A DNA stretch of 64,000 bases from Gallionellaceae bacterium (lineage in GTDB: Bacteria; Pseudomonadota; Gammaproteobacteria; Burkholderiales; Gallionellaceae). Positions within the stretch are counted from its first letter, which is position 1, and every line of letters begins with the position of its first letter. Location: the NCBI GenBank assembly GCA_019753125.1, contig JAIELH010000029.1:2428-66427 (forward strand), read 5' to 3'. Shown piece after piece: positions 45,414-57,144 of the stretch. The notes under the pieces were generated by a model. That model was not told where the DNA came from. It did no database searches and saw only the letters and a list, made by a program, of their open reading frames with translations. The position numbers and the translations under genes are program-made.

Positions 45414-45489
<76 letters not shown>

Positions 45490-45502
45490 GAACAAAGAAA
45501 TT

Positions 45503-45528
45503 AAGCCCCTGTTCGCAGGGGCTTTTTT
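45503..45528 (+). terminator. Intrinsic terminator after the tRNA (island-supplied)
   Basis: aagcccctg-ttcg-caggggctt then T run. Confidence 0.85.
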
Positions 45529-45627
45529 CTTGTCAAAACTCCTTAATAGTCTTGATTTATAAGGCTTTCACATATCTCCCGCTGTCCTTGATTGTCTCTG
45601 ATTGTCTCCCTGTATCCATGCTTTCCA

Positions 45628-45690
45628 GTGGGTAATAATGTGGGTAATGAAGGCGTTTTTGGTAGACTGTGGGTAATGACATTACCCGCA
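45628..45690. repeat. Putative integrase arm-binding sites (left)
   Basis: GTGGGTAAT three times plus inverted ATTACCCGC; the same tandem pair occurs at 57049-57070. Confidence 0.75.
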
Positions 45691-45700
45691 GGGGCGAAAA

Positions 45701-46945
45701 ATGGGCAAATTGAACGACAAGGCAGTCCAAGCGGCGCAGCCGGGCGAGAAGGTGCGCAAGATCAGCGACGGCGACGGCCTGTCGCTGGTCGTGCAGCCGA
45801 ACGGCTCTAAGCTATGGTGGCTGCGATATCGATTCGGCGGCAAGGAAAAGACGCTCTCGCTCGGTCAATATCCGCTGGTGACCCTCAAACAGGCTCGTGA
45901 GTGGGCATACGACGCCCGCAAGCTGCTGGCAGCCGGCAGCGATCCAGGCGAAGTGAAAAAAGCGGCAGCAGCCGAGGCTGCGCCCGCCTCTGCGCCAATC
46001 GGCAAGACCGTCGAGCAGATCGCGCGCGAATGGTTCGAGAAGTTCTCGAAGCAATGGGCGCCAGGACACGCAAGCAAAATCGAGCGACGGCTCGAACGTG
46101 ACTTGTTCCCGCACTTGGGTAGGGCCGGAATCGCCGCCGTTCGCCCTGCCGAGCTACTTGCGGCGGCTCGGAGGGTGGAAGCTCGCGGTGCGGTAGAGAC
46201 AGCGCATCGGCTGCTTAACAACTGCGGCCAGGTCTGGCGGTATGCCGTGGCAACTGGCAGGGCGGAACGTGACATTACGGGGGACTTGAAGGGTGCGCTG
46301 CCACCTGTAAAGACCTCACATCTCGGCGCAATCACCGAGCCAGACGAGGTAGGCGCGCTCCTGCGCGCAATCGAGGAATATCGAGGGGGCGAAGTGGTGC
46401 GGCTGGCGCTGCGGCTGGCTCCACACGTCTTTCTGCGTCCCGGTGAGCTGCGTCAGGGCCGCAAAGAGGAATTCAAGCTAGGGGAGGAGGCGGGCGAGTG
46501 GGAAATTCCGGCGGAAAAGATGAAAGGACGCCGCCCGCACGTCGTCCCGCTGTCTCGACAGGCCGTCGAAATTGTCAGGGATGCGATGGAAGCGGCCGGG
46601 GATAGTGAGTGGCTATTCCCATCACCGCTGTCTGCGTCGCGCTGCATATCCGATATGGCGCTTCTGACGGCGATCCGGCGCATGGGATACTCGAAAGAGG
46701 AGATGACGGCGCACGGATTCCGCGCGATGGCTTCGACGAATCTTGAGCATCTGGGCTACGATGTCAGGCTAATCGAGTTGCAGCTTGCGCACGCCGATCA
46801 GAACGACGTGCGGGCGGCGTACAAGAGGGACGTGAGCCGGTTGCAGATTGAGGCTCGGGCGAAGATGATGCAGGATTGGTCGAACTATCTCGATAGCCTT
46901 AGAGTTGGTGCGCAGGTCATCCCGTTTAGATCTGCGAGTTCATAA
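45701..46945 (+). CDS. P4-type tyrosine integrase
   Basis: Arm-binding domain SDGDGLSL..W.LRYRFGGKEK.LSLG.YP; LRPGE, HGFR, QLAH, AY catalytic residues. Confidence 0.96.
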   Translation: MGKLNDKAVQAAQPGEKVRKISDGDGLSLVVQPNGSKLWWLRYRFGGKEKTLSLGQYPLVTLKQAREWAYDARKLLAAGSDPGEVKKAAAAEAAPASAPIGKTVEQIAREWFEKFSKQWAPGHASKIERRLERDLFPHLGRAGIAAVRPAELLAAARRVEARGAVETAHRLLNNCGQVWRYAVATGRAERDITGDLKGALPPVKTSHLGAITEPDEVGALLRAIEEYRGGEVVRLALRLAPHVFLRPGELRQGRKEEFKLGEEAGEWEIPAEKMKGRRPHVVPLSRQAVEIVRDAMEAAGDSEWLFPSPLSASRCISDMALLTAIRRMGYSKEEMTAHGFRAMASTNLEHLGYDVRLIELQLAHADQNDVRAAYKRDVSRLQIEARAKMMQDWSNYLDSLRVGAQVIPFRSASS

Positions 46946-46987
46946 ACCAATTTTGGCAAATTTAGCTTTCTGAATAGTGGGAGTTTA

Positions 46988-47749
46988 ATGAACTGGAAAG
47001 ACGAGCCGTTACTTAGTTGGGTTAACCGCCAAGTCCCTCCCTGGGCCAATAATCAAATCCTCCATTGGAATGATGTGTTTCCTTGCGGCGACGATTTTGA
47101 CGTTAGGGAGTTCCTGATTGAAGAGCGCAGGAACTCTAATTCAACTCTTGATATGCGAAATGTAGTTGGCCAGTGGGATCACTATGCGGGGCAAACATGG
47201 GCAGAAGCTCTATTCGATCCCAAATGGAAACCTGGCAAAATTCGTCACTGCCTCGACAAGGCTGATGAAAACCCTGAATATTATTTCAATGGGGACGTTC
47301 AAGACGACATCAGCTTTAACTCGATTGATGGGATTTCCTGGTATTCAGTTAACAGCGGGAACCATCGTACAATCATCGCAAAATTTCTATGCGAAATGTA
47401 TTACGAGAAGACCGGACATTACCCACTTGTCGCTGGAGTCAGCACAACCCACTATGTGATTGACTGGGAGCTTTATAACCTTTTTAAGCAGCTTCGGAAG
47501 CTTCAAGATCATGGGATTCATGTTTCATTCCCACCAAGATCGATGCGTCGCACAGAGTTGTTTTTTAGTGTTGGTGATTACCGCTTCAATCGAGATGGAA
47601 GGTGTGGGCAATTGAAACCCAACCAATTCAAAGCCTATGCCAAGTGGGTTATTCAAAATGACGGAGCCTTAACGCGTTGGGATAAATTCCATCATCTTAA
47701 ACAAGTTGTTTTTGGAGATTCCAGGAAGCTGATTTACCCTAAAAAATGA
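46988..47749 (+). CDS. Hypothetical cargo protein with ParB/Srx-like GNHR motif
   Basis: 253 aa AT-rich ORF with GGGAG RBS; WYSVNSGNHRT. Confidence 0.7.
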   Translation: MNWKDEPLLSWVNRQVPPWANNQILHWNDVFPCGDDFDVREFLIEERRNSNSTLDMRNVVGQWDHYAGQTWAEALFDPKWKPGKIRHCLDKADENPEYYFNGDVQDDISFNSIDGISWYSVNSGNHRTIIAKFLCEMYYEKTGHYPLVAGVSTTHYVIDWELYNLFKQLRKLQDHGIHVSFPPRSMRRTELFFSVGDYRFNRDGRCGQLKPNQFKAYAKWVIQNDGALTRWDKFHHLKQVVFGDSRKLIYPKK

Positions 47750-47797
47750 AGATGGATATATCGCTATCGTTTTAATCACAGAGAGGGGAGCTAATCA

Positions 47798-48010
47798 ATG
47801 CAAGAATGCGAAATAGATGATGATGGCAATGTCACTTGCCCGAGTTGCGGTCAGGTATACACGGCAATTGGTAATTGCCACCCGACTCCGGCTCCAAAAG
47901 GTTCAGGTGGGTGCATCAAGATTTGCTATTGCCCCTCATGCAACGAGTCATGCTGTGCAGAAAGAGACGCACCCCGTTTAGAACCATCAGGGCCATCGTT
48001 TTCTTTTTAA
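47798..48010 (+). CDS. Small Cys-rich (zinc-ribbon-like) protein
   Basis: GAGGGGAG RBS; CPSC twice, many Cys. Confidence 0.6.
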   Translation: MQECEIDDDGNVTCPSCGQVYTAIGNCHPTPAPKGSGGCIKICYCPSCNESCCAERDAPRLEPSGPSFSF

Positions 48011-48023
48011 CCGCTCCCTATCA

Positions 48024-48572
48024 CTAACCGTTAATGATCGCACCCAGCCTTGCCATCCACTCCTCCCCAGCTCGATGATTGATGAGCGGAACTTTGTATA
48101 ACGGCTTCGCAGGATTATTAGTCTTGAACACAAGCTGATTGCTTGCCTGTCTTGTGTTAGCCCGAATTTTATCTCCCCAAACATTCGTGGAGCCGTCGAT
48201 CTTATCAATCCACTGGTGCTCATAGCCCAAGATGTCGTAAAGGCTGTAGAAGTCGTACGTTTTTGCCCCAAGGTCAACAAACGCAATCACCTTCGACTTG
48301 GAGTCGATTAAGGCCTGTCCAACTTGGTAATCAGCGTTGTGACCACGCTTTTCCAAGTCCGCCTTAGCAGCCTCGTACAACGCACTGTTGCTCTTAATGA
48401 ACCACACGATGCTGCCCACAACCAATCCCGCCACGGCCCATACGACACCAGCCCCAATATTTCCCGACGATATCCATCCGACCACAAACGCGACTACTAC
48501 CACCCCGCCAGCAATCTTTCCGAATCGGGGTCGATTTTCCGAGAGTGAAAACTGAACACGTTGGTAAGCCAT
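48024..48572 (-). CDS. Membrane protein, 2 TM plus soluble beta-rich domain; possible ExcA-like entry exclusion protein
   Basis: GGAGAG RBS; two hydrophobic helices then ALIDSKSKVIAFV..DILGYE..LVFKT..P; function inferred from architecture and proximity to traY. Confidence 0.7.
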   Translation of the reverse strand: MAYQRVQFSLSENRPRFGKIAGGVVVVAFVVGWISSGNIGAGVVWAVAGLVVGSIVWFIKSNSALYEAAKADLEKRGHNADYQVGQALIDSKSKVIAFVDLGAKTYDFYSLYDILGYEHQWIDKIDGSTNVWGDKIRANTRQASNQLVFKTNNPAKPLYKVPLINHRAGEEWMARLGAIING

Positions 48573-48660
48573 TTATCTCTCCAGGTTGTTGGTCAGAATT
48601 GCCGAGCGCTGGGTGACTCAAGTCGAACCCAATATTTGCGCCGGAAGTATATTCCAGTAT

Positions 48661-48900
48661 TTAGTTGCCTTGCCTCTTCTCGCGGAAATAGAGGATCAGC
48701 GCCGCCACCATTTGCCCGGCCAGGCGTGGCGCAATAAAGAACGTCCACACGAAGGCCGCGAATAGCGCAGTGATAGTCCCCAAGACAGGATTGATCCAGA
48801 ATGCCGCAGCGACGATCAGTCCTGTCCATATAAGCAATCCAACCAATACTTTCAGCAGCTCCATGACCTTGGAGCCATTGCTTTTCTGTATCGTGATCAT
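48661..48900 (-). CDS. Small membrane protein
   Basis: Hydrophobic ORF, AGGGGA RBS, start 48900 or 48864. Confidence 0.6.
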   Translation of the reverse strand: MITIQKSNGSKVMELLKVLVGLLIWTGLIVAAAFWINPVLGTITALFAAFVWTFFIAPRLAGQMVAALILYFREKRQGN

Positions 48901-48930
48901 TTGTTTTCCCCTTCTCTCTGGTTTACTTGC

Positions 48931-49305
48931 TCAGTCGTAAATTTTGGCACCGGCCATCCGGCTAGTACGGCACTCCACATATTCCGCAGCATGATCGCAG
49001 CCTGCCCAGTAAGCATCCGCCTCCGGCGTGCCTGGCTGATATACATCTCCTGGAAGGAAAGTACCTTCCAGCAAACGCCTGAGCTTCGCCTCAAAGCCTC
49101 TTCGGTATGCCGGGCTTCTCGGTGTTGCGCCAACGCTGAACCTGTCAGACATTCCATCTTCGACTGTGAATAGGTTTCCCCCTCCTGCTCGTTGATGGGC
49201 CTCGCTGGCGGTGGGTTTAAGTGCATCGGGTTGGTGGGCCTCGCGGGTGCCGCGAAGGGCGGCGGTGTTGATTTGCCGGATGGATTGGTTGTTTGTTGTG
49301 CTCAT
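48931..49305 (-). CDS. Small mobile-element hypothetical protein (PRS.AY..G ... GT.EADA..AG motif)
   Basis: ATG 49305 after GAAAGGG at the base of the long hairpin (alternative ATG 49152); motif recalled from plasmid/ICE small proteins. Confidence 0.55.
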   Translation of the reverse strand: MSTTNNQSIRQINTAALRGTREAHQPDALKPTASEAHQRAGGGNLFTVEDGMSDRFSVGATPRSPAYRRGFEAKLRRLLEGTFLPGDVYQPGTPEADAYWAGCDHAAEYVECRTSRMAGAKIYD

Positions 49306-49310
49306 GGTTT

Positions 49311-49565
49311 GCCCTTTCGTTTGTGGTTTACATCGGTTCGGAGCCGCCTCACCCTGTCCGCGACGATCTGACGGGCGTTTAGACGGGGGCACAAGGCATG
49401 ACAAAAGCGAGCGAGTGGTGCGGCCAGCGCGGAGCCGAAGGCGAGCACTGCCACGGTCGTTTGCGCCCGCCGCAGGCGGTTTGGCGTGACTTGTGCGCTT
49501 TTCCCCGGCTGCCCGGCATGTCGGCGCAAGGGTGGCTCCGAACCGATGTTCGCAAACGAAAGGGC
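49311..49565 (-). promoter_or_regulatory. ~255-nt imperfect hairpin, candidate Frpo/ssi-type single-stranded DNA promoter
   Basis: gccctttcgtttg..acatcggttcggagcc pairs with ggctccgaaccgatgt..caaacgaaagggc; inner arms also pair; TTGTCA-17-TAAACG at 49404-49376. Confidence 0.6.
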
Positions 49566-50015
49566 GAGCACAACGAACGGCTTCCAATCTTTCCGGCAAA
49601 TCGGCGCTGCGTGCAGCGCCACGCTTTTATCAAAGGAGCCATTGCGACGGCGCAGCCGTGGCGATGACAACCCGCCTTTGCTTCGTGAGCCGTGTCGCCG
49701 CAGGCGTGACGGCGATTGCTTCTTCGGAGGCTGCAAGTTATCCATGCCCGCAGCAAAACCGGCGCACACCACGCCAGGCGTTTTGCGGAGAGGTGTGGGT
49801 AACTTTGCAGCCTCCGGCACGCGCAGCGTGCAAGCGGCAGGGATTGATACCCGAAGGGCCGAGACCTTGGGCTCGGTCTGCTGTATTGCGCAATACAGCG
49901 ATGAAAGCCCGACCGGCAAAGCCGAGCCGCCAACGTCAGCAAAAGAGATATGCAGAGAAATTCCGTCAAATATTTTCAAACCGAGTCATTCTCATGACGA
50001 CCACCGCAAACCGCC

Positions 50016-52322
50016 TCATTTCGTATGCCCCTCCGGACTCACTGCGTCCGCCTCGTCACGCCCTCCCGCATCGGACCTCCGTGCGTCCCGCTCCTGCTCT
50101 TTCCTGACTTGAGCGCGGCGCGCCAGGCCCGCAGCTCCGGCCACTGCCGCCGCCTTTGCCTGGCCGCTGGCCCCGCTCTCGATCCTGCTCATTGTGTTTT
50201 GCTCGCCGAGGTCGCCGATGCCTGCGCCGATCCAGCGCAAGATGCGATCAGGCAGGGTTTGCGGCAGCGAGAAGACCAGCATGAATACTCCGAGGATGAT
50301 CACCCCATAGATGAGCATGAAACCGCCGACGGACAGCAGCCCTGTAACGGAGTCGGCCTGGATGATGCGGAAGGCTGTCATAAAGCTGGCATTTACAAAA
50401 CGCACTGCCGGAATCAGGATCGCCATGCTTGCGACCAGGCCCAGCACCATTAATGCGGGCCGGGCGAAGAGCGACATGAGCAGCAGATAGCCTTGCTTCT
50501 GGGAACCGATAAAGGAGTCTTCTCCCTCAGGAGTTAAATGCATCACAACCCACAGTGAACCTGCCGCCAAGGCCTCTACCACTTGGACCATCCACCCAAT
50601 CACGCCCAAAGCAAACACATAGAACGGGATCATGGGAATCCACATGCCCAAGAAATATCCGCCATACAAAATTGCCAACACGCCCGGCTCCACTACCGAC
50701 CACAATTCCTGAATCATCGTCAGCACGAACTTAAGCACCCCAGGACCAACCGACAGCAGACCAGCCAGGTTCGTACCCAATACGGATTGGCCTGCCGCCG
50801 CCTTGGAACCTTCGAACAGGCCATCCACGGTTGCTGTGAGGGTCGCTTTGGTCAGAAGCACGATTTCGCCAAAGGCGGCCATCCAGTCACCAAGGTTTTT
50901 CACCTGCATCACTGGATCGGTGCCGTCTTCGCCAAGATAGAAGACCATGCCCGACATGGCCGAGTTGGCAAGACCGTTAAACCAAGCCTCGACTTGGGTT
51001 TTAACGGTAGTGCCCCCGTCCGCGAAGTCCTCAGGGCCGAGGCCCGTCCGAAGGTGCGGCATATCCGTTGGTTTGCGTGTCTGGACATCGGGGCCTTGGT
51101 CAAGCTTGAGGAGGACCAATCCGGCCAGCGCGGTGTATCTCGTCATGACGAGCTGCACCGCGCTGGACACCTGGCCGCCACCGCCTAGGATGTGGTCGAC
51201 CGTATAGGTGCCAGGAACATATTGATGCCGGGTCGTCATGGCCTTCTGGATGCCGTCTTTGACCGCCACCAGCTCGCGGTGCAGCGCTCCCGCCATGACC
51301 CACCCGCCCTCTTTGAGCTTGGCCTTGACGCCGCTGTTGGCTGAGCCCACCCGCTTGGATACCTCGTCGCGAATATCCTTCAGCATCGCCTCGCGCGCAT
51401 CATCGATAACGACCTGAATCTGGCTGGCGGAGAACTTTTCGCCGGTCGCGTCGGCAACACGGACCAGCTCTATGACCTGAGGGGCCATCTTGGCGAATAC
51501 ATCCATTGCGGCCTTGTACCGAATGTTCCCGATGCTCCCCTGGACGTTGGCAATCTCGTCCTGAAGTGTTGAGGTAGCCTGGTTCACCGATGCCCGATTG
51601 GTGTCCGGCTTGGTAAAGGTGGTGGTCAAAATAACCGTGCCGCATATTTCCTCGCTGCCGGGCCACTTGGGGTCACGGAAATCCAAAAAGGTCTTGTAAG
51701 TCGCCGTAGTCGAACCGGTATTGATCCGCTGATGCCAGGAGTGAAGCTGAAGATTTACCGTACCTGCCCCCATCGTCTGGTTGATACCTTGAGTGACACC
51801 GTAGGCACAGACCTGAGACTGGAAGGCGTTGAGCGCGATGCGGTCAAACTGTTTGTCGTCCACGACGGACCGCATCACCTGCTCAACCGTGGTGGTGTCA
51901 ACGACGTAATCGACCACACGTCCCCACATGTTCGACGCGAACCCAACGGACCAGGTCACGATCAGCAGGATCGCGAGTTGAATCATCGAGTAGCCGCTGG
52001 TGCTGGGGATCAGGAACGCTGAGGCGGTGAACGTGCGCAAGGGGGTGTAGAACGTGGACCATTTCTTGCCGAGCACTTGGCCGTCATTGGCCGTATTGGT
52101 CAAGCCGAAGACGGTTACCCAGGCCAGAATGATGGAGCCGAAGAACAGGACACCACCGTTGAAGAATCCGAACGCAGCACCCAGCATGTTGGCCGTTGCG
52201 TTTTCGGCCCCTGCCGTGCTTCCGCCGACGATGTGCGTGATTGCTGTCCCGAAGATTTCCCGCAGCATTTCAATGGCTGCATCTCCGCTATCGGGGGTAA
52301 ATGGGGCTGCGTTGGGATTCAT
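50016..52322 (-). CDS. traY: DotA/TraY family type IVB secretion membrane protein
   Basis: D....L..IFG, TANDGQVLGKKWS.FY.PLR, GGWVMAG, DP...K..GD, IPMIPF, E.L.A..LW, GYLLL..LF.RP.LM..G, LPD.ILRWIG. Confidence 0.88.
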   Translation of the reverse strand: MNPNAAPFTPDSGDAAIEMLREIFGTAITHIVGGSTAGAENATANMLGAAFGFFNGGVLFFGSIILAWVTVFGLTNTANDGQVLGKKWSTFYTPLRTFTASAFLIPSTSGYSMIQLAILLIVTWSVGFASNMWGRVVDYVVDTTTVEQVMRSVVDDKQFDRIALNAFQSQVCAYGVTQGINQTMGAGTVNLQLHSWHQRINTGSTTATYKTFLDFRDPKWPGSEEICGTVILTTTFTKPDTNRASVNQATSTLQDEIANVQGSIGNIRYKAAMDVFAKMAPQVIELVRVADATGEKFSASQIQVVIDDAREAMLKDIRDEVSKRVGSANSGVKAKLKEGGWVMAGALHRELVAVKDGIQKAMTTRHQYVPGTYTVDHILGGGGQVSSAVQLVMTRYTALAGLVLLKLDQGPDVQTRKPTDMPHLRTGLGPEDFADGGTTVKTQVEAWFNGLANSAMSGMVFYLGEDGTDPVMQVKNLGDWMAAFGEIVLLTKATLTATVDGLFEGSKAAAGQSVLGTNLAGLLSVGPGVLKFVLTMIQELWSVVEPGVLAILYGGYFLGMWIPMIPFYVFALGVIGWMVQVVEALAAGSLWVVMHLTPEGEDSFIGSQKQGYLLLMSLFARPALMVLGLVASMAILIPAVRFVNASFMTAFRIIQADSVTGLLSVGGFMLIYGVIILGVFMLVFSLPQTLPDRILRWIGAGIGDLGEQNTMSRIESGASGQAKAAAVAGAAGLARRAQVRKEQERDARRSDAGGRDEADAVSPEGHTK

Positions 52323-52335
52323 GTCTATCCTCCGG

Positions 52336-52689
52336 TTAATTACAGGGCGTCATTCCGTGGGCAAGCATGGCTGCCTTGGCCTGTGCACGCGCCATTTCCA
52401 CTTGCTGAGGGGGCGGGGGCGGCAAGCCTGATACAGCGCGCATAGCGTCATCGCAAGCTTGGGCGGCCTGATGGCCTGCTTGGCAGACAAGGTGGGGAGC
52501 GGTGGTAGCATCACCAGCCTCAACGGCCTGCCGGATGCGCGGCATCCAAGCCTGCCAAACGGCGTTACTCGCTGTTTGACAAACCGAGAGGGTTGCGAAG
52601 CGCTCCATTGCATCCCCTGCTATGGCTGGCGGGGAAAGCGAGATCGAAAGGAGCGCGGCCAGAACTGTCCTAGTTGGAAATTCCGTCAT
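52336..52689 (-). CDS. Small exported hypothetical protein
   Basis: GGAGGG RBS; signal peptide ending PAIA; four Cys; immediately upstream of traY. Confidence 0.6.
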   Translation of the reverse strand: MTEFPTRTVLAALLSISLSPPAIAGDAMERFATLSVCQTASNAVWQAWMPRIRQAVEAGDATTAPHLVCQAGHQAAQACDDAMRAVSGLPPPPPQQVEMARAQAKAAMLAHGMTPCN

Positions 52690-52705
52690 GATTTTCCCTC
52701 CGCTG

Positions 52706-53275
52706 TCAGTATTCCAGCCCAGTTTCATCCGATGCGGGTTTTGGTTTCAGGCCTGGCTCCGTGGTCAAGTCGCCATCACCTCCGCCTGCGCCACCCGAGC
52801 TACCACCCCCACCCCCATCGCGCCCTTCCACCTCATCCCGCAGGGCATCACGTAGCCATTCAACTGCCCAAGCCTGCCAATCATCCCGGCAGGCCAGTGC
52901 TTGTTCTGGCGTCAGATTCGCCCAGTTCATATCGAACGCGAGTTGATATTCCGCCTTATAGATGGCGCTCGTACGCGCGAGATCGGCGTAATGCTCGATC
53001 AGGAACATGGTCAGAAAGGACAGCAGCACATCCCAGTCCTGCTGACGCTGACGCATCCGCTCACGGAGTTCCCGCAGGTCCTGGCGGTAGGTTGCCCAAG
53101 CCCGGATCATCTGCTCCTCGGGCAGGCGGCGCGGACGCTTACCCTCCCAGAATCTTTCGGTGCGGAGCTCGCGCAGCAACTCCTTCAGGGCAGGTAAAGT
53201 TTTCTCGGCCCCGTTGGAGCTCAGATGAGACTCCAGCAAGATGTTGTACAGCTTGTCTTCGAGTTCGGTAGTCAT
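52706..53275 (-). CDS. Hypothetical helical protein with Gly-rich tail, downstream of relaxase
   Basis: AAGGA RBS, operonic spacing, GGGGGSSGGAGGG linker. Confidence 0.6.
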   Translation of the reverse strand: MTTELEDKLYNILLESHLSSNGAEKTLPALKELLRELRTERFWEGKRPRRLPEEQMIRAWATYRQDLRELRERMRQRQQDWDVLLSFLTMFLIEHYADLARTSAIYKAEYQLAFDMNWANLTPEQALACRDDWQAWAVEWLRDALRDEVEGRDGGGGGSSGGAGGGDGDLTTEPGLKPKPASDETGLEY

Positions 53276-53289
53276 GGTGGCAATCCTTA

Positions 53290-54879
53290 TCAACGTGGTT
53301 TAAGGGTGTTCTCCCGGTCAGGGAGCGGGGTTATCTCGCCGTTGCGCTGGACAGCGACTTGCTGCCCTGGACGCACTGGCCGGGATGGGGTTACTGGCAT
53401 AACAACGCCAGGTCGATCATGCGGCTCGATCCACGCATGTTTGCCGACGTGCCGGACCGTGCCGTTTGTGAAGCTTTGGGTATCCCGCTCGATGCGGAAT
53501 CCCAGCAGAGGTTCTGGAACGCCTTCAGCTCGTTGCTGCTGGATCAATTCCCAGCGGCGAGCGTCAGGATGATTCTCGAAGCGCTGGCGCAGGCTCTCGG
53601 GATCGTTCTTGAGCTTGGCCGCCTCAATGGCATCGACCGGCGCAGCGGTCGCAAGCCATTGCCGGGCCAGCTCGTCACGCGCGGGGTCATTGGTTTGTTT
53701 GTTCATCAAGTTTCTCTCCTCTTCAACAATGCTCGCCAGCTCGGGGTTGGCGATGCGAACGCCTGCGCGTAGCGCTTCGCGAACCGCAAGCCGCTTGAAC
53801 TCATCCGAACCGGTCAGTACCAGACTCGCCCAACCCTTGGCCTTTGCAAGCTCGATCAGGGCGCGCGCCTTGGGGTGGGAAGCCTTCCCGACCAGGCTCA
53901 ATTGATCGCCACGATCCACAATGGCGGGGAGGCCTGCCGCTGCGCCATGAGCCCAGCGGTAGAGCGTGCGCCCGCGCCTAGTCTCAGCTTTCATGGCGGC
54001 AACAGGAGACCGGGACAGCCTGCCAACTTGGCCGGATTCGTTCCGGCAGGAGTTGGCGTTACGGCCTGCGCGTTCACGGCGGGCAGTTCGAATCTCTTGC
54101 TTCACGCTTTCAATATCCTCGCGAAGAACACGAACTCTGCGCCGCTGCTGACGGATGGTTTTGACCTTTGCGTTATTCTGGTCGCGCCAACGATCTCCCT
54201 TGCGTTTTTCTGGACCAATCTTGGGCTCGGGTTCGCCCAATCCTTTCGCCGCATTTGAACGGAGGTCTAAGCGTGGCTGGTGTCCGTGCTCAACCAGAAA
54301 CTGGTTAGCGTAGACCTCCCATCTTTCTCGCAGCTCCTCGACGATATGCTTGTCGTTCCATTTCCGATCTTTACCCCCTCCGCCTTTGGTGGAGTCGGGT
54401 TCGCACAGTTCGCCTGTCTTTTTGTTTCGATAACGGCTGGGCGGACGCTTGAAGAACTGCTCGCTCGGCCTGTCGACACCATCCATGAGGCGGTCGCTAA
54501 ACATAGAGTGGCAATGGATATTGGGAAGACCATCCGCCGCAGTCTTGATATGAATTGAAGACAGATATGGATGCTTATCACCGATTTCCTGAGCAAGCCA
54601 ACCGTCTACAAGTTCTTTCGCTTCTTCGAAAGTAAGCTCTCGCGGGATCGCGCACTCGAACTCGTAGTAAGTTCGACCGTTTGAACGCTCATGGGTGTCA
54701 GCAGCTTCCCAAAATGCAAGGGGATCAGTCGTTGCCCATGTCGGCATGTTCCCCATGCAGATATGGGCAACGTCCTCACGCGAGGAATACTTCTCGACGC
54801 CGATCACGTAAGCGGCATGCTTACGTGCTCTGCCGACCCCGCCACGCTTCAATTTGAAATGTGAGCTATTCCCGCTCAT
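53290..54879 (-). CDS. mobA: MobA/MobL (MOBQ) relaxase with LPD7-like C-terminal domain
   Basis: HAAY, GNMPTWA, FWEAAD..ER.NGR, EFECAIPREL, IH..PNIHCH..FSDR..DG; DRG..LA.AKGW..L.LTGS.EF. Confidence 0.92.
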   Translation of the reverse strand: MSGNSSHFKLKRGGVGRARKHAAYVIGVEKYSSREDVAHICMGNMPTWATTDPLAFWEAADTHERSNGRTYYEFECAIPRELTFEEAKELVDGWLAQEIGDKHPYLSSIHIKTAADGLPNIHCHSMFSDRLMDGVDRPSEQFFKRPPSRYRNKKTGELCEPDSTKGGGGKDRKWNDKHIVEELRERWEVYANQFLVEHGHQPRLDLRSNAAKGLGEPEPKIGPEKRKGDRWRDQNNAKVKTIRQQRRRVRVLREDIESVKQEIRTARRERAGRNANSCRNESGQVGRLSRSPVAAMKAETRRGRTLYRWAHGAAAGLPAIVDRGDQLSLVGKASHPKARALIELAKAKGWASLVLTGSDEFKRLAVREALRAGVRIANPELASIVEEERNLMNKQTNDPARDELARQWLATAAPVDAIEAAKLKNDPESLRQRFENHPDARRWELIQQQRAEGVPEPLLGFRIERDTQSFTNGTVRHVGKHAWIEPHDRPGVVMPVTPSRPVRPGQQVAVQRNGEITPLPDRENTLKPR

Positions 54880-55222
54880 ACCCTGTCCCGTCGTTCATGG
54901 GGTGTCGGGGGCTAGCCCCTGACCGCGTGTCGTTTCCAGAATGGAAACGAGGAATCGCGCCTGCTTTGAAAAAGCAGGGAAACACCACTTGATTCCGCAG
55001 GGTGTAGGCCGCATTCGGAGTCAATGAATTTTCGAGATACTGGCCGATCAAAATGATGGTGCGCAGTTTTTTCTCTGTCGCCGCTTTCATTGCTGCTGCC
55101 TTTTCCCGCTGTTTACTTTGCGCCTGTGCCGTCCACGCCTCTTGTTCTGCCTCGATTTGCTTAAGAGCTGCATCCAGTTCTGCCTGAGAAATTTCGCCTT
55201 GCGATAACTGAGCCATCACCAC
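54866..55222 (-). CDS. MobC/TraD-like accessory protein (3' end runs across oriT)
   Basis: GGAGG RBS; coiled coil then R.I.L.IG motif similar to neighbouring TraD. Confidence 0.55.
   Translation of the reverse strand: MVMAQLSQGEISQAELDAALKQIEAEQEAWTAQAQSKQREKAAAMKAATEKKLRTIILIGQYLENSLTPNAAYTLRNQVVFPCFFKAGAIPRFHSGNDTRSGASPRHPMNDGTGYERE
54899..54963 (+). promoter_or_regulatory. Putative oriT (MOBQ type)
   Basis: IR tcgtttcca-gaa-tggaaacga followed by GGAATCGCGCCTG, resembling MOBQ TAAGTGCG/CCCT; adjacent gtcggggg-cta-gcccctgac hairpin just upstream of mobA. Confidence 0.6.
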
Positions 55223-55236
55223 CTCCGTAATGTTGA

Positions 55237-55572
55237 TTACTGCAAATAGTTGTCGTCTTGCTTGTTGCTCTTTCGTTGTTGCTCTTTTTCCGCCAGCAGG
55301 GCATCGCCAGCACGCTTGAATTCTGAAAATTGATCTGCGTCGGCCATGAGTCGCTGAAGAGCTAAGAAGCCCCCAAGCAACGCGCCTTTATCGCAGTCGA
55401 ACAGGCCGGCCAGTTTGGTCAAACCTCCGAGCTCAAACTTCCGTTGGTTCTCTGCTTTGCGGACTCGCTGCCGCTCCGCTTGGCGTACCGCCCGCTCTTG
55501 CGTTTTTTGTTCTGCTTCCAAGGCTTGGAGTTTGGTTTTGAGAGCGGAGATTTTTTCGTCGATTTTTGTCAT
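55237..55572 (-). CDS. Conjugal transfer protein TraD family (MOBQ accessory)
   Basis: RK....RKFELGGL..LAGL...DK.ALLG..L..FK..G. Confidence 0.85.
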   Translation of the reverse strand: MTKIDEKISALKTKLQALEAEQKTQERAVRQAERQRVRKAENQRKFELGGLTKLAGLFDCDKGALLGGFLALQRLMADADQFSEFKRAGDALLAEKEQQRKSNKQDDNYLQ

Positions 55573-56408
55573 GTGGCGCTCCGGTGGTCGGATTTGTTCT
55601 TAATGCGTACCCGCAGTAAGAGCTCCTCGCCCTTGGCTTGCCAGGCGGGGTCAATAGAGTCTGCGTCGCGCTTGCGCATCGTGGCGTCCTCTTGCTCACG
55701 GCACTGGGTTGCTTGGCGGTCGCGTTGGAGCTGCTCGATTTGCTGCTGGATCAGGCCAGGAACAGGCTGCTTGCTTACGGCACGAAGTGCCGCAACAGCG
55801 GCGGCAATATCATCGGGGGCATGTTGTTGCTCAAGGGCCTCGGCTGCTTGCACATCAGCGGGCAGCCAGGTAACGATGCCACTCTGGCGGCGATTGAATA
55901 TTTTTAGTGCAGGCGCAGCAGCAGAATCAGTGCCACGCGCATGCGCGCGTGGTGCTGCTGCTTCTTCTTGCAGAACCTTAGAACCTTGCAGAACCTTAGA
56001 GGCAGAATTCCCGATGATGGGATTAACCGAAGATCGGGAAATCCGTTCTTCGGTGTAATCACTTGAATTTTCTTGGCTCAGCGGATGCTCAATGGCCCAT
56101 CTATCAGCCGAAACAAGCACCCAGCGTTTCCCGGCAACTTTGCCGCCCTCGACGCGGATGGGCTCTATCCGAAGGGCACCAACCGCCTCCAACTCGTGGA
56201 GGCGTGAACGCAGGGCGTCACGCCCCTCAGGGGCCATGCTGATCAAATGGACCAGGCGAATAATCCATCCGCGCGGAAGGTCCCACAGGAAGGCAAATAG
56301 ACCCCGAGCGCCAAAGCTCAAACGTGAATCGCGCAGCAAAGCACGTGGCAATGGCTTTGCAAAATCAACCTCGCCCTCGCGCTCGATCTCGATTTTGCCG
56401 CCGGTCAT
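55569..56408 (-). CDS. Phage-type replication initiator (N-terminal winged HTH)
   Basis: D.RLSF.ARGL...L..LP.GW motif; internal DNA repeats in the linker region. Confidence 0.7.
   Translation of the reverse strand: MTGGKIEIEREGEVDFAKPLPRALLRDSRLSFGARGLFAFLWDLPRGWIIRLVHLISMAPEGRDALRSRLHELEAVGALRIEPIRVEGGKVAGKRWVLVSADRWAIEHPLSQENSSDYTEERISRSSVNPIIGNSASKVLQGSKVLQEEAAAPRAHARGTDSAAAPALKIFNRRQSGIVTWLPADVQAAEALEQQHAPDDIAAAVAALRAVSKQPVPGLIQQQIEQLQRDRQATQCREQEDATMRKRDADSIDPAWQAKGEELLLRVRIKNKSDHRSAT
55968..56053. repeat. Iteron-like repeats inside rep (candidate oriV)
   Basis: ttgcagaaccttaga twice (55968, 55986); three ccgNNNNt(c)gg units at 56011-56053. Confidence 0.5.
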
Positions 56409-56626
56409 TTTTTGTCCCCGGCGTTATCCCGATCAATCTCTGCGGCAATATCGCCTGCTCGGAAAAACACCGATTTACCTCGGTGAACCGGAGCTATAGA
56501 AAAGGTGCCCATCCACATCCGATTTCTTACGGTCTGCGGTGCGAGGCCAAGGATCGTTGCAGTTGTTTTGAGCGGGACGAGGATTGCGCCGCCAGACTGG
56601 CGCAGCACGAGGTCTAGAGTGTCCAT
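56405..56626 (-). CDS. Excisionase/AlpA-like HTH protein
   Basis: A.ILGLA.QTVRN..G.F..G..V.F...DIA; located next to attR. Confidence 0.75.
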   Translation of the reverse strand: MDTLDLVLRQSGGAILVPLKTTATILGLAPQTVRNRMWMGTFSIAPVHRGKSVFFRAGDIAAEIDRDNAGDKK

Positions 56627-57048
56627 GGAATTACCCTGTCTCTTGGCAGATATGCCAATGTTGGGCGAGACAGGTAATGAGGACTGGAACGATAAGATTG
56701 CTAGCAGGTAGCCTGGGGGCGGGGTCTCACATTCTGCCCAGTAGCATTACCAGCTTTTTTGTATTGCATCATGAAGCGCGGTTCGTTACTCCGCACAGCT
56801 TGTGGTCCTAGTCTCGCGCTATCGCCTGATCGCGCGCTCCGCTCGCTGGATTACCCACCTTATCCCGAATCGTGGGCTTCCACCCCACGACCACCCAGCG
56901 CCACTTGCTTGACGGGATAAGACTAGCTTGTAGCCATATCCACCGTCAACATATTCGTTATCCCTGTTTATCCCTACGTACCCAAGGAAATCACTAGAAA
57001 GACGAGATGTGGCATGTTGTATAATTAAACTCTGTTGTGGCGCATTGT

Positions 57049-57070
57049 GTGGGTAACAATGTGGGTAATG
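57049..57070. repeat. Putative integrase arm-binding sites (right)
   Basis: gtgggtaacaatgtgggtaatg matches gtgggtaataatgtgggtaatg at 45628 with one mismatch. Confidence 0.75.
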
Positions 57071-57144
57071 GCGATGGTAGCCCGCCAAAAGGCCTTTATT
57101 TTCGCGGGTGTTCTATAGTGCCCCGACCACCAGCATTATCAGAG

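Follow-up and report, generated by a model that had tools for sequence, protein, structure and literature searches.

Why should a small mobilizable island carry an intact gene for one subunit of a mating channel and no recognizable gene for any other? The question is raised by an 11.66-kb element at positions 45476-57133 of a 64,000-nucleotide stretch of DNA (the window) from a freshwater bacterium of the Gallionellaceae (contig JAIELH010000029.1, assembly GCA_019753125.1), where it is inserted in the 3' end of a tRNA-Phe gene (Table 1). The gene is traY/dotA, which belongs to the type IVB secretion system (T4BSS) channels of mating-pair-formation class I (MPF-I). A first-pass annotation proposed a hijacker of such a channel, and we consider it probable, with ample room for doubt, that the island would insert its own TraY into a helper's type IVB channel, so that the exclusion protein of a helper-bearing recipient misses the channel.

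The element is sharply delimited. Its 15-nt att core has only two matches with one edit or fewer in the whole 2.47-Mb genome assembly (88% complete), and these are the two island ends. Empty sites are seen in relatives: in 9 of 22 prfC loci, the distance between the prfC match and a tRNA-Phe is 54-161 bp; the remaining 13 have no tRNA within about 1.5 kb. An empty allele is also present in metagenome run X7, in which one contig joins 45483 to 57127 and skips 11,643 bp, its shorter side being only 23 letters, alongside contigs that carry the island (depths of 173 for the empty-site contig, about 320 for the island and about 500 for the left flank). Because of these att repeats and empty sites, we conclude that the element integrates at, and is lost from, tRNA-Phe. 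Whole or in part, it occurs among the matches listed in 20 runs from 12 studies of drinking water, groundwater, rock, wastewater and lake (18 of these runs being flagged as possible sources), and the nearest named record carrying the same island is a Gallionella metagenome-assembled genome (MAG). At attR (57126-57127), contigs of six of eight runs have 1-3 bases fewer than the window, and attR varies between strains or assemblies. Direct repeats just inside both ends are likely integrase arm sites; the repeated 9-mer occurs five times in the window (45639, 45668, 49794, 57048 and 57060) and 13 times genome-wide, where 0.34 per 64 kb is expected. With an integrase and att sequences at a fixed target, its own relaxase and a site resembling an origin of transfer (oriT), and no complete mating pore or VirB4, the island is a member of the integrative mobilizable element (IME) class.

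Fifteen open reading frames (ORFs) of the island were scanned with Pfam and NCBIfam, and clear family matches were obtained for the integrase, a MobA/MobL+LPD7 relaxase, TraD and TraY; no other T4BSS gene, coupling protein or ATPase was found among them. TraY matches TIGR04346 over its full length (380 bits, cut-off 100, model positions 3-656), and its only relative in the PDB is DotA (9ngy), to which it is similar by sequence (E 6e-50). A Foldseek search with the predicted model (pLDDT 71) likewise returned DotA as the only match under 0.001 (E 3e-9), yet with a TM-score of only 0.31; the model match and the DotA-like fold both place the protein in the DotA/TraY family. Identity to IncL TraY is about 25%, and residues 193-430 or so are hypervariable, with 10-50% identity where the ends keep 80-90%. 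The gene is the last of a tight minus-strand run, xis-rep-traD-orf118-mob-orf195-orf130-traY, in which neighbouring genes are -23 to +14 nt apart. The relaxase scores above the Pfam cut-off for MobA_MobL (E 1e-21) and carries LPD7; its NCBIfam MobQ score of 64 bits is below the cut-off of 200. The oriT-like element aligns with the same element upstream of relaxases in six related loci, and its putative nick site follows from the MOBQ consensus. A strict form of that consensus has no match in the island with two or fewer mismatches, and the oriT candidate came from the alignment instead. The first-pass description of an att-bounded island with integrase, MOBQ relaxase and oriT, and with an intact 768-aa traY in the relaxase operon as its only mating-pore gene, is thus borne out. 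Its accessory labels fared less well: one TraD has a PF06412 match and the other genes called TraD-like do not, and the excisionase (73 aa) and Rep (279 aa) match no family, being named by position and by look-alikes in sister islands.

Synonymous (dS) and nonsynonymous (dN) divergence was estimated by the Nei-Gojobori method, with sister island L011 as the reference pair for the window island. For traY, dS is 0.25, dN 0.020 and dN/dS 0.079, uniformly along the gene; the ratio for the relaxase is higher (0.24). In all 13 pairs tested, dN/dS of traY is 0.06-0.21, several with saturated dS. The gene is also intact in all eight runs whose contigs were examined; contigs of RNA run X20 cover parts of it, although contigs cannot show transcription. 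Because of these ratios and the recurrence described below, the comparisons show a lone traY that is functional and under purifying selection. They bear directly on the idea that traY is the leftover of a decayed MPF-I integrative and conjugative element (ICE), an idea that draws on C-terminal remnants in ten loci and on a traW-traY block without IcmL or IcmK match in another genome (G238). Constraint over a dS of 0.25 in a comparison of two islands neither of which has the machine, integrity in eight of eight runs, repeated capture, and the lack of other T4BSS fragments on the island largely refute it here, and we regard it as very improbable. Decay of traY is real, yet it is not the state of this island; the first-pass premise that homologous islands keep traY accordingly stands in that the gene is often intact and selected, and gives way where only remnants are left. 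The two islands, nearly identical overall, are themselves mosaic, with a dS of 0.006 in the integrase and 0.25 in traY and relaxase, and with orf195 almost unalignable, and this contrast in divergence implies that the transfer block was exchanged.

The lone copies do not descend from one event. In the main tree (31 rows, LG+G4, no mixture model), four clades with 100/100 support each contain both lone TraYs and TraYs that belong to T4BSS elements. One joins G227 to L075 and L124; a second joins pND6-2 and a Xanthomonas plasmid to L001, L071 and L121; in a third, L066 and a Bordetella plasmid, whose T4BSS status was judged from neighbours only, group with L056 and small MOBP plasmids; and the fourth holds pBVIE03 with the window island, L011, L012, L032 and L074. 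In a quick tree of 72 rows, a single clade of 23 lone TraYs was rejected against nine machine-linked TraYs (approximately unbiased test, p-AU 7e-53; seven state changes), with 40 rows of uncertain context left out and metagenome loci L036, L038, L043, L047 and L050 outside the clade test. The trees show several separate associations between lone traY and T4BSS, and, because four clades are shared with T4BSS elements, we infer that traY was captured repeatedly, in the direction from machine to island. This agrees with the earlier view that the gene is not a recent deletion relic of one ICE.

How common is this arrangement? Among 301 genomes of the family, 15 gave a match to traY, 13 of them over the cut-off, two to IcmL and three to IcmK, so that traY is far commoner than other T4BSS core genes, as anticipated in the first pass; this ratio overstates the excess to an undefined degree, in that related genomes are not independent samples and plasmids drop out of MAGs more readily than islands do. 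Only one genome (G227) holds traY, IcmL and IcmK, all on one contig. The 18 family loci comprise 11 full-length copies and seven C-terminal remnants. Nine of the 11 adjoin a relaxase (four MOBQ, two of which are the window island and its sister, four MOBP and one MOBF), and no other T4BSS gene was seen in these nine except IcmV/TraX in four and a coupling protein in two; a contig end is close to four of them. The other two are the complete machine of G227 and the traW-traY block of G238. At the order level, 14 of 401 genomes matched traY, and the 14 new loci include seven with a relaxase beside full traY (MOBQ, MOBP or MbeA-like), three with no recognized relaxase, two remnants, one locus cut by a contig end and one left unannotated. 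The Pfam scan of neighbours covered 445 + 121 ORFs, a subset of them. Repeats at tRNA ends bound four of the 16 loci tested by exact match (L077, L117, L121 and L124).

Plasmids show the same pattern. PLSDB holds 3,963 records with a TraY match, 301 of which are 'mobilizable' according to MOB-suite, some with resistance genes, and three complete 27-40-kb plasmids have a relaxase and traY with no other annotated T4BSS pore gene. Overall, the relaxases found beside lone traY are of the MOBQ, MOBP, MbeA-like MOBP and MOBF types. One plasmid module recurs (L030, L031, L134, L135, L119 and L120), with a MOBP relaxase, a traY of 830-960 aa, a small coiled-coil gene and an M23 peptidase; it has no other pore gene, and one carrier has blaGES-5. 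This distribution bears on whether lone TraY has a job in the host that needs no helper, such as a membrane channel or defence. A few lone copies without a recognized relaxase nearby (L117, L125 and L127) would suit such a role; most copies lie within a few kilobases of a relaxase, no PADLOC or other match suggests a defence role for the neighbours, and the literature examined describes no such activity, so that we rate it as decidedly improbable, if less so than the relic. The traY of L125 (G579:C22) has phage-like surroundings, its neighbours being a secretin, a dNMP kinase and DNA polymerase A.

What, then, would a single pore subunit do for a mobilizable island? TraY is the partner of entry exclusion on the donor side in MPF-I (PMC12282955, PMC6112013, PMC8125031), is listed as the counterpart of VirB6 (PMC12624023), and, as DotA, forms with IcmX the pentameric central gate (bioRxiv 2025.06.23.660953, PMC12857230). 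In the MPF-F class, the TraG of SGI1 replaces that of its helper, permits entry into IncC-bearing cells and boosts transfer (PMC5389848). The background given in the first pass, on TraY and ExcA and on SGI1 TraG, agrees with these papers. Because TraY is exclusion partner, VirB6 counterpart and gate at once, and because SGI1 TraG provides a precedent, replacement of the subunit with escape from exclusion is the simplest reading. The one pore gene that is always kept is the very subunit that those papers name as the donor-side exclusion partner in MPF-I.

Stepwise, the process would run as follows. The island, which integrates at and is lost from tRNA-Phe, would excise to a circle; its own relaxase, judging by family, would nick oriT; the coupling protein and pore of a helper would be used, since neither was found on the island or in the assembly; TraY, functional and selected while alone, as dN/dS and recurrence show, would replace or mix with the TraY pentamer of the helper; and escape from exclusion, by analogy with SGI1 TraG, would open cells that already carry the helper to the island, from which it could then spread further.

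The nearest parallels share the principle and differ in parts. Like the island, SGI1 (helper IncA/IncC, MPF-F) is integrated, is not self-transmissible and has a divergent VirB6-like pore subunit that is an exclusion target (PMC5389848); its TraG is 40% identical to that of the helper (PMC5704250), as the island TraY is 42% identical to the nearest TraY from a full machine. SGI1 has TraN, TraG and TraH, whereas the island is of the MPF-I/type IVB class, has one pore gene and not three, carries a canonical MOBQ-type relaxase, and is known from sequence alone. The trmE site, traN/traG/traH and AcaCD activation of the SGI1 family do not apply to it, with its tRNA-Phe site and no TraN, TraG or TraH match. 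GISul2 and the IncP island of Burkholderia glumae are also IMEs, the latter with its own relaxase, that have few pore genes including a VirB6 homologue, and escape from exclusion has been proposed for them (PMC5704250); these are MPF-T elements with three genes including one for exclusion, in contrast to TraY alone, MOBQ and no recognized exclusion gene. PAGI-8 and PAGI-48 of Pseudomonas aeruginosa (14-16 kb) have a tRNA-Phe site, an integrase and TraY/DotA, and the part of the paper available describes no relaxase, mechanism or family for them (PMC12024412). In IncI1 R64 and IncL/M pCTX-M3, traY belongs to a complete transfer region and is immediately followed by excA, neither of which the island has (PMC6112013, PMC8125031, PMC12282955), although their TraYs and that of the island share the TraY family (TIGR04346, above cut-off). 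The island does carry a VirB6-like subunit and lacks the remainder of the pore, as pore-remodelling IMEs do, and at most it may work like SGI1 and GISul2, outside those families.

Entry of TraY into a helper pore need not serve escape from exclusion. The island might instead be transferred in preference or more efficiently, or reach a different set of recipients, and either gain would fit the data equally well. SGI1 TraG with TraH also lifts SGI1 transfer over that of the helper (PMC5389848), DotA is the gate of the channel, and traY is in the relaxase operon and diverges together with mob (dS 0.25 in both, 0.006 in the integrase). Against this, the same pore gene is kept with relaxases of four unrelated types, which is more readily reconciled with a function on the recipient side than with matching to a relaxosome. 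The two gains are compatible, and we think efficiency or range unlikely, though worth serious consideration, as the gain in place of escape.

Besides this equal fit of transfer efficiency or range, several observations tell against replacement of a helper's TraY with exclusion escape. First, no helper was found at home: within the assembly there was no match to PF12696, PF11393 or PF12293, nor to IcmB, IcmO, IcmK, IcmL, DotC, TraW, TraX, ExcA or a coupling protein, each within its 88% completeness. Queries with DotB matched only pilus and secretion ATPases, and the genes that would mark an MPF-I ICE (TraU/IcmB, TrbC/IcmO, TraM/IcmL and TraN/IcmK, or remnants of them) were seen neither on the island nor in the assembly. 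Hosts of SGI1-type islands often lack a helper. Second, of the TraYs known to accompany a full machine, the nearest (that of pBVIE03) is only 42% identical, whereas other relatives of the island TraY reach 50-93%. Third, the island has no TraW/IcmX or TraX/IcmV partner, so its lone TraY must fit foreign ones. Fourth, the ten remnants (seven of the 18 family loci and three further) keep the last 120-260 aa only and arose by independent truncations, which means that the gene is dispensable at times. Fifth, no attP circle joint was seen in contigs of eight runs, and contigs drop rare forms. Finally, we know of no exclusion gene for T4BSS elements of the Burkholderiales type.

Candidate helpers do exist nearby, so that the first-pass call for a helper T4BSS is answered in the family and among close TraY relatives, and not in this genome. 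Contig C36 of G227 has DotB, DotD, IcmL, TraO, IcmG, IcmJ, IcmB, TrbC, PilN and TraY, and pBVIE03 has IcmB, IcmO, IcmK and DotC annotated. The genome of the window island itself carries two more relaxase-traY loci, one full-length, with a TraY 22% identical to that of the island, and one truncated. The former (L001, G000:C36:114-7643) has tRNA-Thr, a MOBQ relaxase, an IcmV/TraX-like gene and a full 770-aa TraY of another clade. The locus is interrupted by the end of its contig, and it suggests that there is a second type of helper. The latter (L002, G000:C29:1-5513) has tRNA-Ala, a MOBQ-primase relaxase, a HigBA pair and, of traY, only the final 121 aa, with a small coiled-coil gene after it. 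A tmRNA island (L003, G000:C57:1-7652), also cut by a contig end, has a related integrase, ParA and a 443-aa TraN (MPF-F), and looks like an SGI1-type hitchhiker.

Small coiled-coil genes were found at the 3' end of traY, the position of excA, in T4BSS-type elements and many islands and remnants. Unnamed families of 125-250 aa adjoin traY in about 45 loci (e.g., L013:14715-15143) and are candidate new entry-exclusion proteins. They are not known ones: no NCBIfam exclusion model matched, and the best Atlas score was 0.88, with no family. These genes, placed like trbK between trbJ and trbL in GISul2 and the IncP islands, lend some weight to a further possibility, that TraY acts against the helper or against redundant self-transfer, as a poison subunit that lowers helper transfer or as half of an exclusion pair of its own. 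The window island has no member of these families, its 182-aa membrane ORF has no BLAST similarity to IncI1 or IncL ExcA, the partner families match no exclusion model, and a pore-dependent island would lose by poisoning the pore; we judge this improbable. All ten truncated copies (L002, L052, L080-L085, L128 and L130) keep the C-terminal part of traY and none an N-terminal piece. The small gene downstream is also retained in most of them, as would happen if its promoter lay in the 3' end of traY. Being polyphyletic, with differing start points, they do not form a conserved 'mini-TraY' family.

The remaining features are collected in Table 1. The 335-nt hairpin has a fold z-score of -10.9, and none of 100 shuffles was equally stable; it may be akin to the single-strand promoters of leading regions, and part of the region recurs at G000:C23:29840-30024 in the same genome and in L013, L071, L072 and L076. 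A 109-aa frame at 48897-49226, overlapping the ORF of about 125 aa, is probably no gene (dN/dS 1.2). Across the island, Rfam found tRNA only, PADLOC gave no convincing match, a promoter scan was uninformative (one found, 2.7 expected), IMG/VR held no confirmed relative and a phage collection four weak records. Elsewhere in the genome, a filamentous-prophage-like region with a Zot-domain ATPase and an integrase lies between tRNA-Thr and tRNA-Lys (G000:C36; L001:9426-12000 and L146:1-6265).

Table 1. Coordinates in the window of the island, its target and its features
Feature	Position	Strand	Basis
tRNA-Phe(GAA), integration target	45414..45489	+	ARAGORN, Rfam
attL core (tRNA 3' end, 15 nt)	45476..45490	+	repeat match; empty-site joint
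Left group of direct repeats (9-10 nt), likely arm sites of the integrase	45628..45678	+	repeats; function inferred
Tyrosine integrase, P4-like three-domain type, 414 aa	45701..46945	+	three Pfam integrase domains; 99.8% identical to sister island
253-aa cargo ORF, low GC	46988..47749	+	no family match
70-aa Cys-rich ORF, possible zinc ribbon	47798..48010	+	weak Pfam matches only
182-aa ORF, N-terminal hydrophobic segments	48024..48572	-	dN/dS 0.23; not ExcA-like by BLAST
79-aa hydrophobic ORF	48661..48900	-	dN/dS 0.19
ORF of about 125 aa, conserved in other islands	48931..49308	-	comparison with other islands
Long hairpin, about 335 nt, possible single-strand promoter or signal	49270..49605	+	fold, blastn
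traY/dotA, 768 aa, intact, sole mating-pore gene	50016..52322	-	TIGR04346, structure match, dN/dS
115-130-aa ORF, signal-peptide-like start	52336..52728	-	dN/dS 0.29
195-aa ORF (orf195)	52706..53293	-	very divergent in sister island
MOBQ-type relaxase (MobA/MobL + LPD7), 529 aa	53290..54879	-	Pfam, NCBIfam
118-aa ORF overlapping oriT candidate, likely relaxosome accessory factor	54866..55222	-	position; no family match
oriT candidate: hairpin, then nick-like core	54928..54962	+	alignment
TraD (PF06412), relaxosome accessory protein	55237..55572	-	Pfam E 2e-11
279-aa putative replication protein	55569..56408	-	no Pfam/NCBIfam match; look-alikes at same position in sister islands
73-aa putative excisionase/AlpA-like protein	56405..56626	-	position; homologue in L012; no family match
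Right group of direct repeats, likely arm sites of the integrase	57048..57070	+	repeats
attR core (tRNA 3' end, one base missing)	57120..57133	+	repeat match; empty-site joint

Is such an element already described? Islands of the EARL (ROD21-like) group use an Asn-tRNA site, have a conserved EARL integration module and occur in Enterobacteriaceae, and the tRNA-Phe site and betaproteobacterial-type host place our island outside that group. By term search, TraY/DotA does not occur in the ROD21/EARL papers listed, nor TraY or exclusion in that of a 2026 preprint on genomic islands as hitchers. The IME review covers SGI1 (MPF-F), for which remodelling of the pore is shown, and GISul2 and the IncP island (trbJ-trbK-trbL, MPF-T), for which it is proposed; TraY and MPFI are absent from the available text (PMC5704250). 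We found no description of MPF-I pore hijacking in the literature searched, which was mostly open-access main texts; supplements may list such elements. The novelty supposed in the first pass therefore holds for the MPF-I version, and is tempered by the trbJ-trbK-trbL islands already proposed and by the lone TraY already noted in PAGI-8/48. What the island would do, on the reading that its TraY enters a helper channel, is extend a known pore-hijacking strategy to MPF-I; the strategy itself is already known for other classes.

More broadly, and more tentatively, these loci may represent a widespread and so far undescribed guild of hitchhikers, tRNA islands and mobilizable plasmids of 25-45 kb with at least four relaxase types, that repeatedly stole TraY/DotA, the gate subunit, from type IVB machines and use it alone to reprogram the helper channel and pass exclusion, the coiled-coil genes after traY being a new exclusion family; we hold the chances of this broader proposal to be somewhat short of even. 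To a specialist, the extension will be plausible rather than startling, and its worth lies in breadth, single-gene minimalism and direct testability. If it is true, pore hijacking reaches a third major conjugation class, and one subunit is enough. Natural divergent TraY alleles could then map the exclusion recognition of the DotA/TraY gate, now that the DotA-IcmX structure is solved, and 'mobilizable' plasmids and islands with a stray traY would read differently, their helpers being MPF-I elements.

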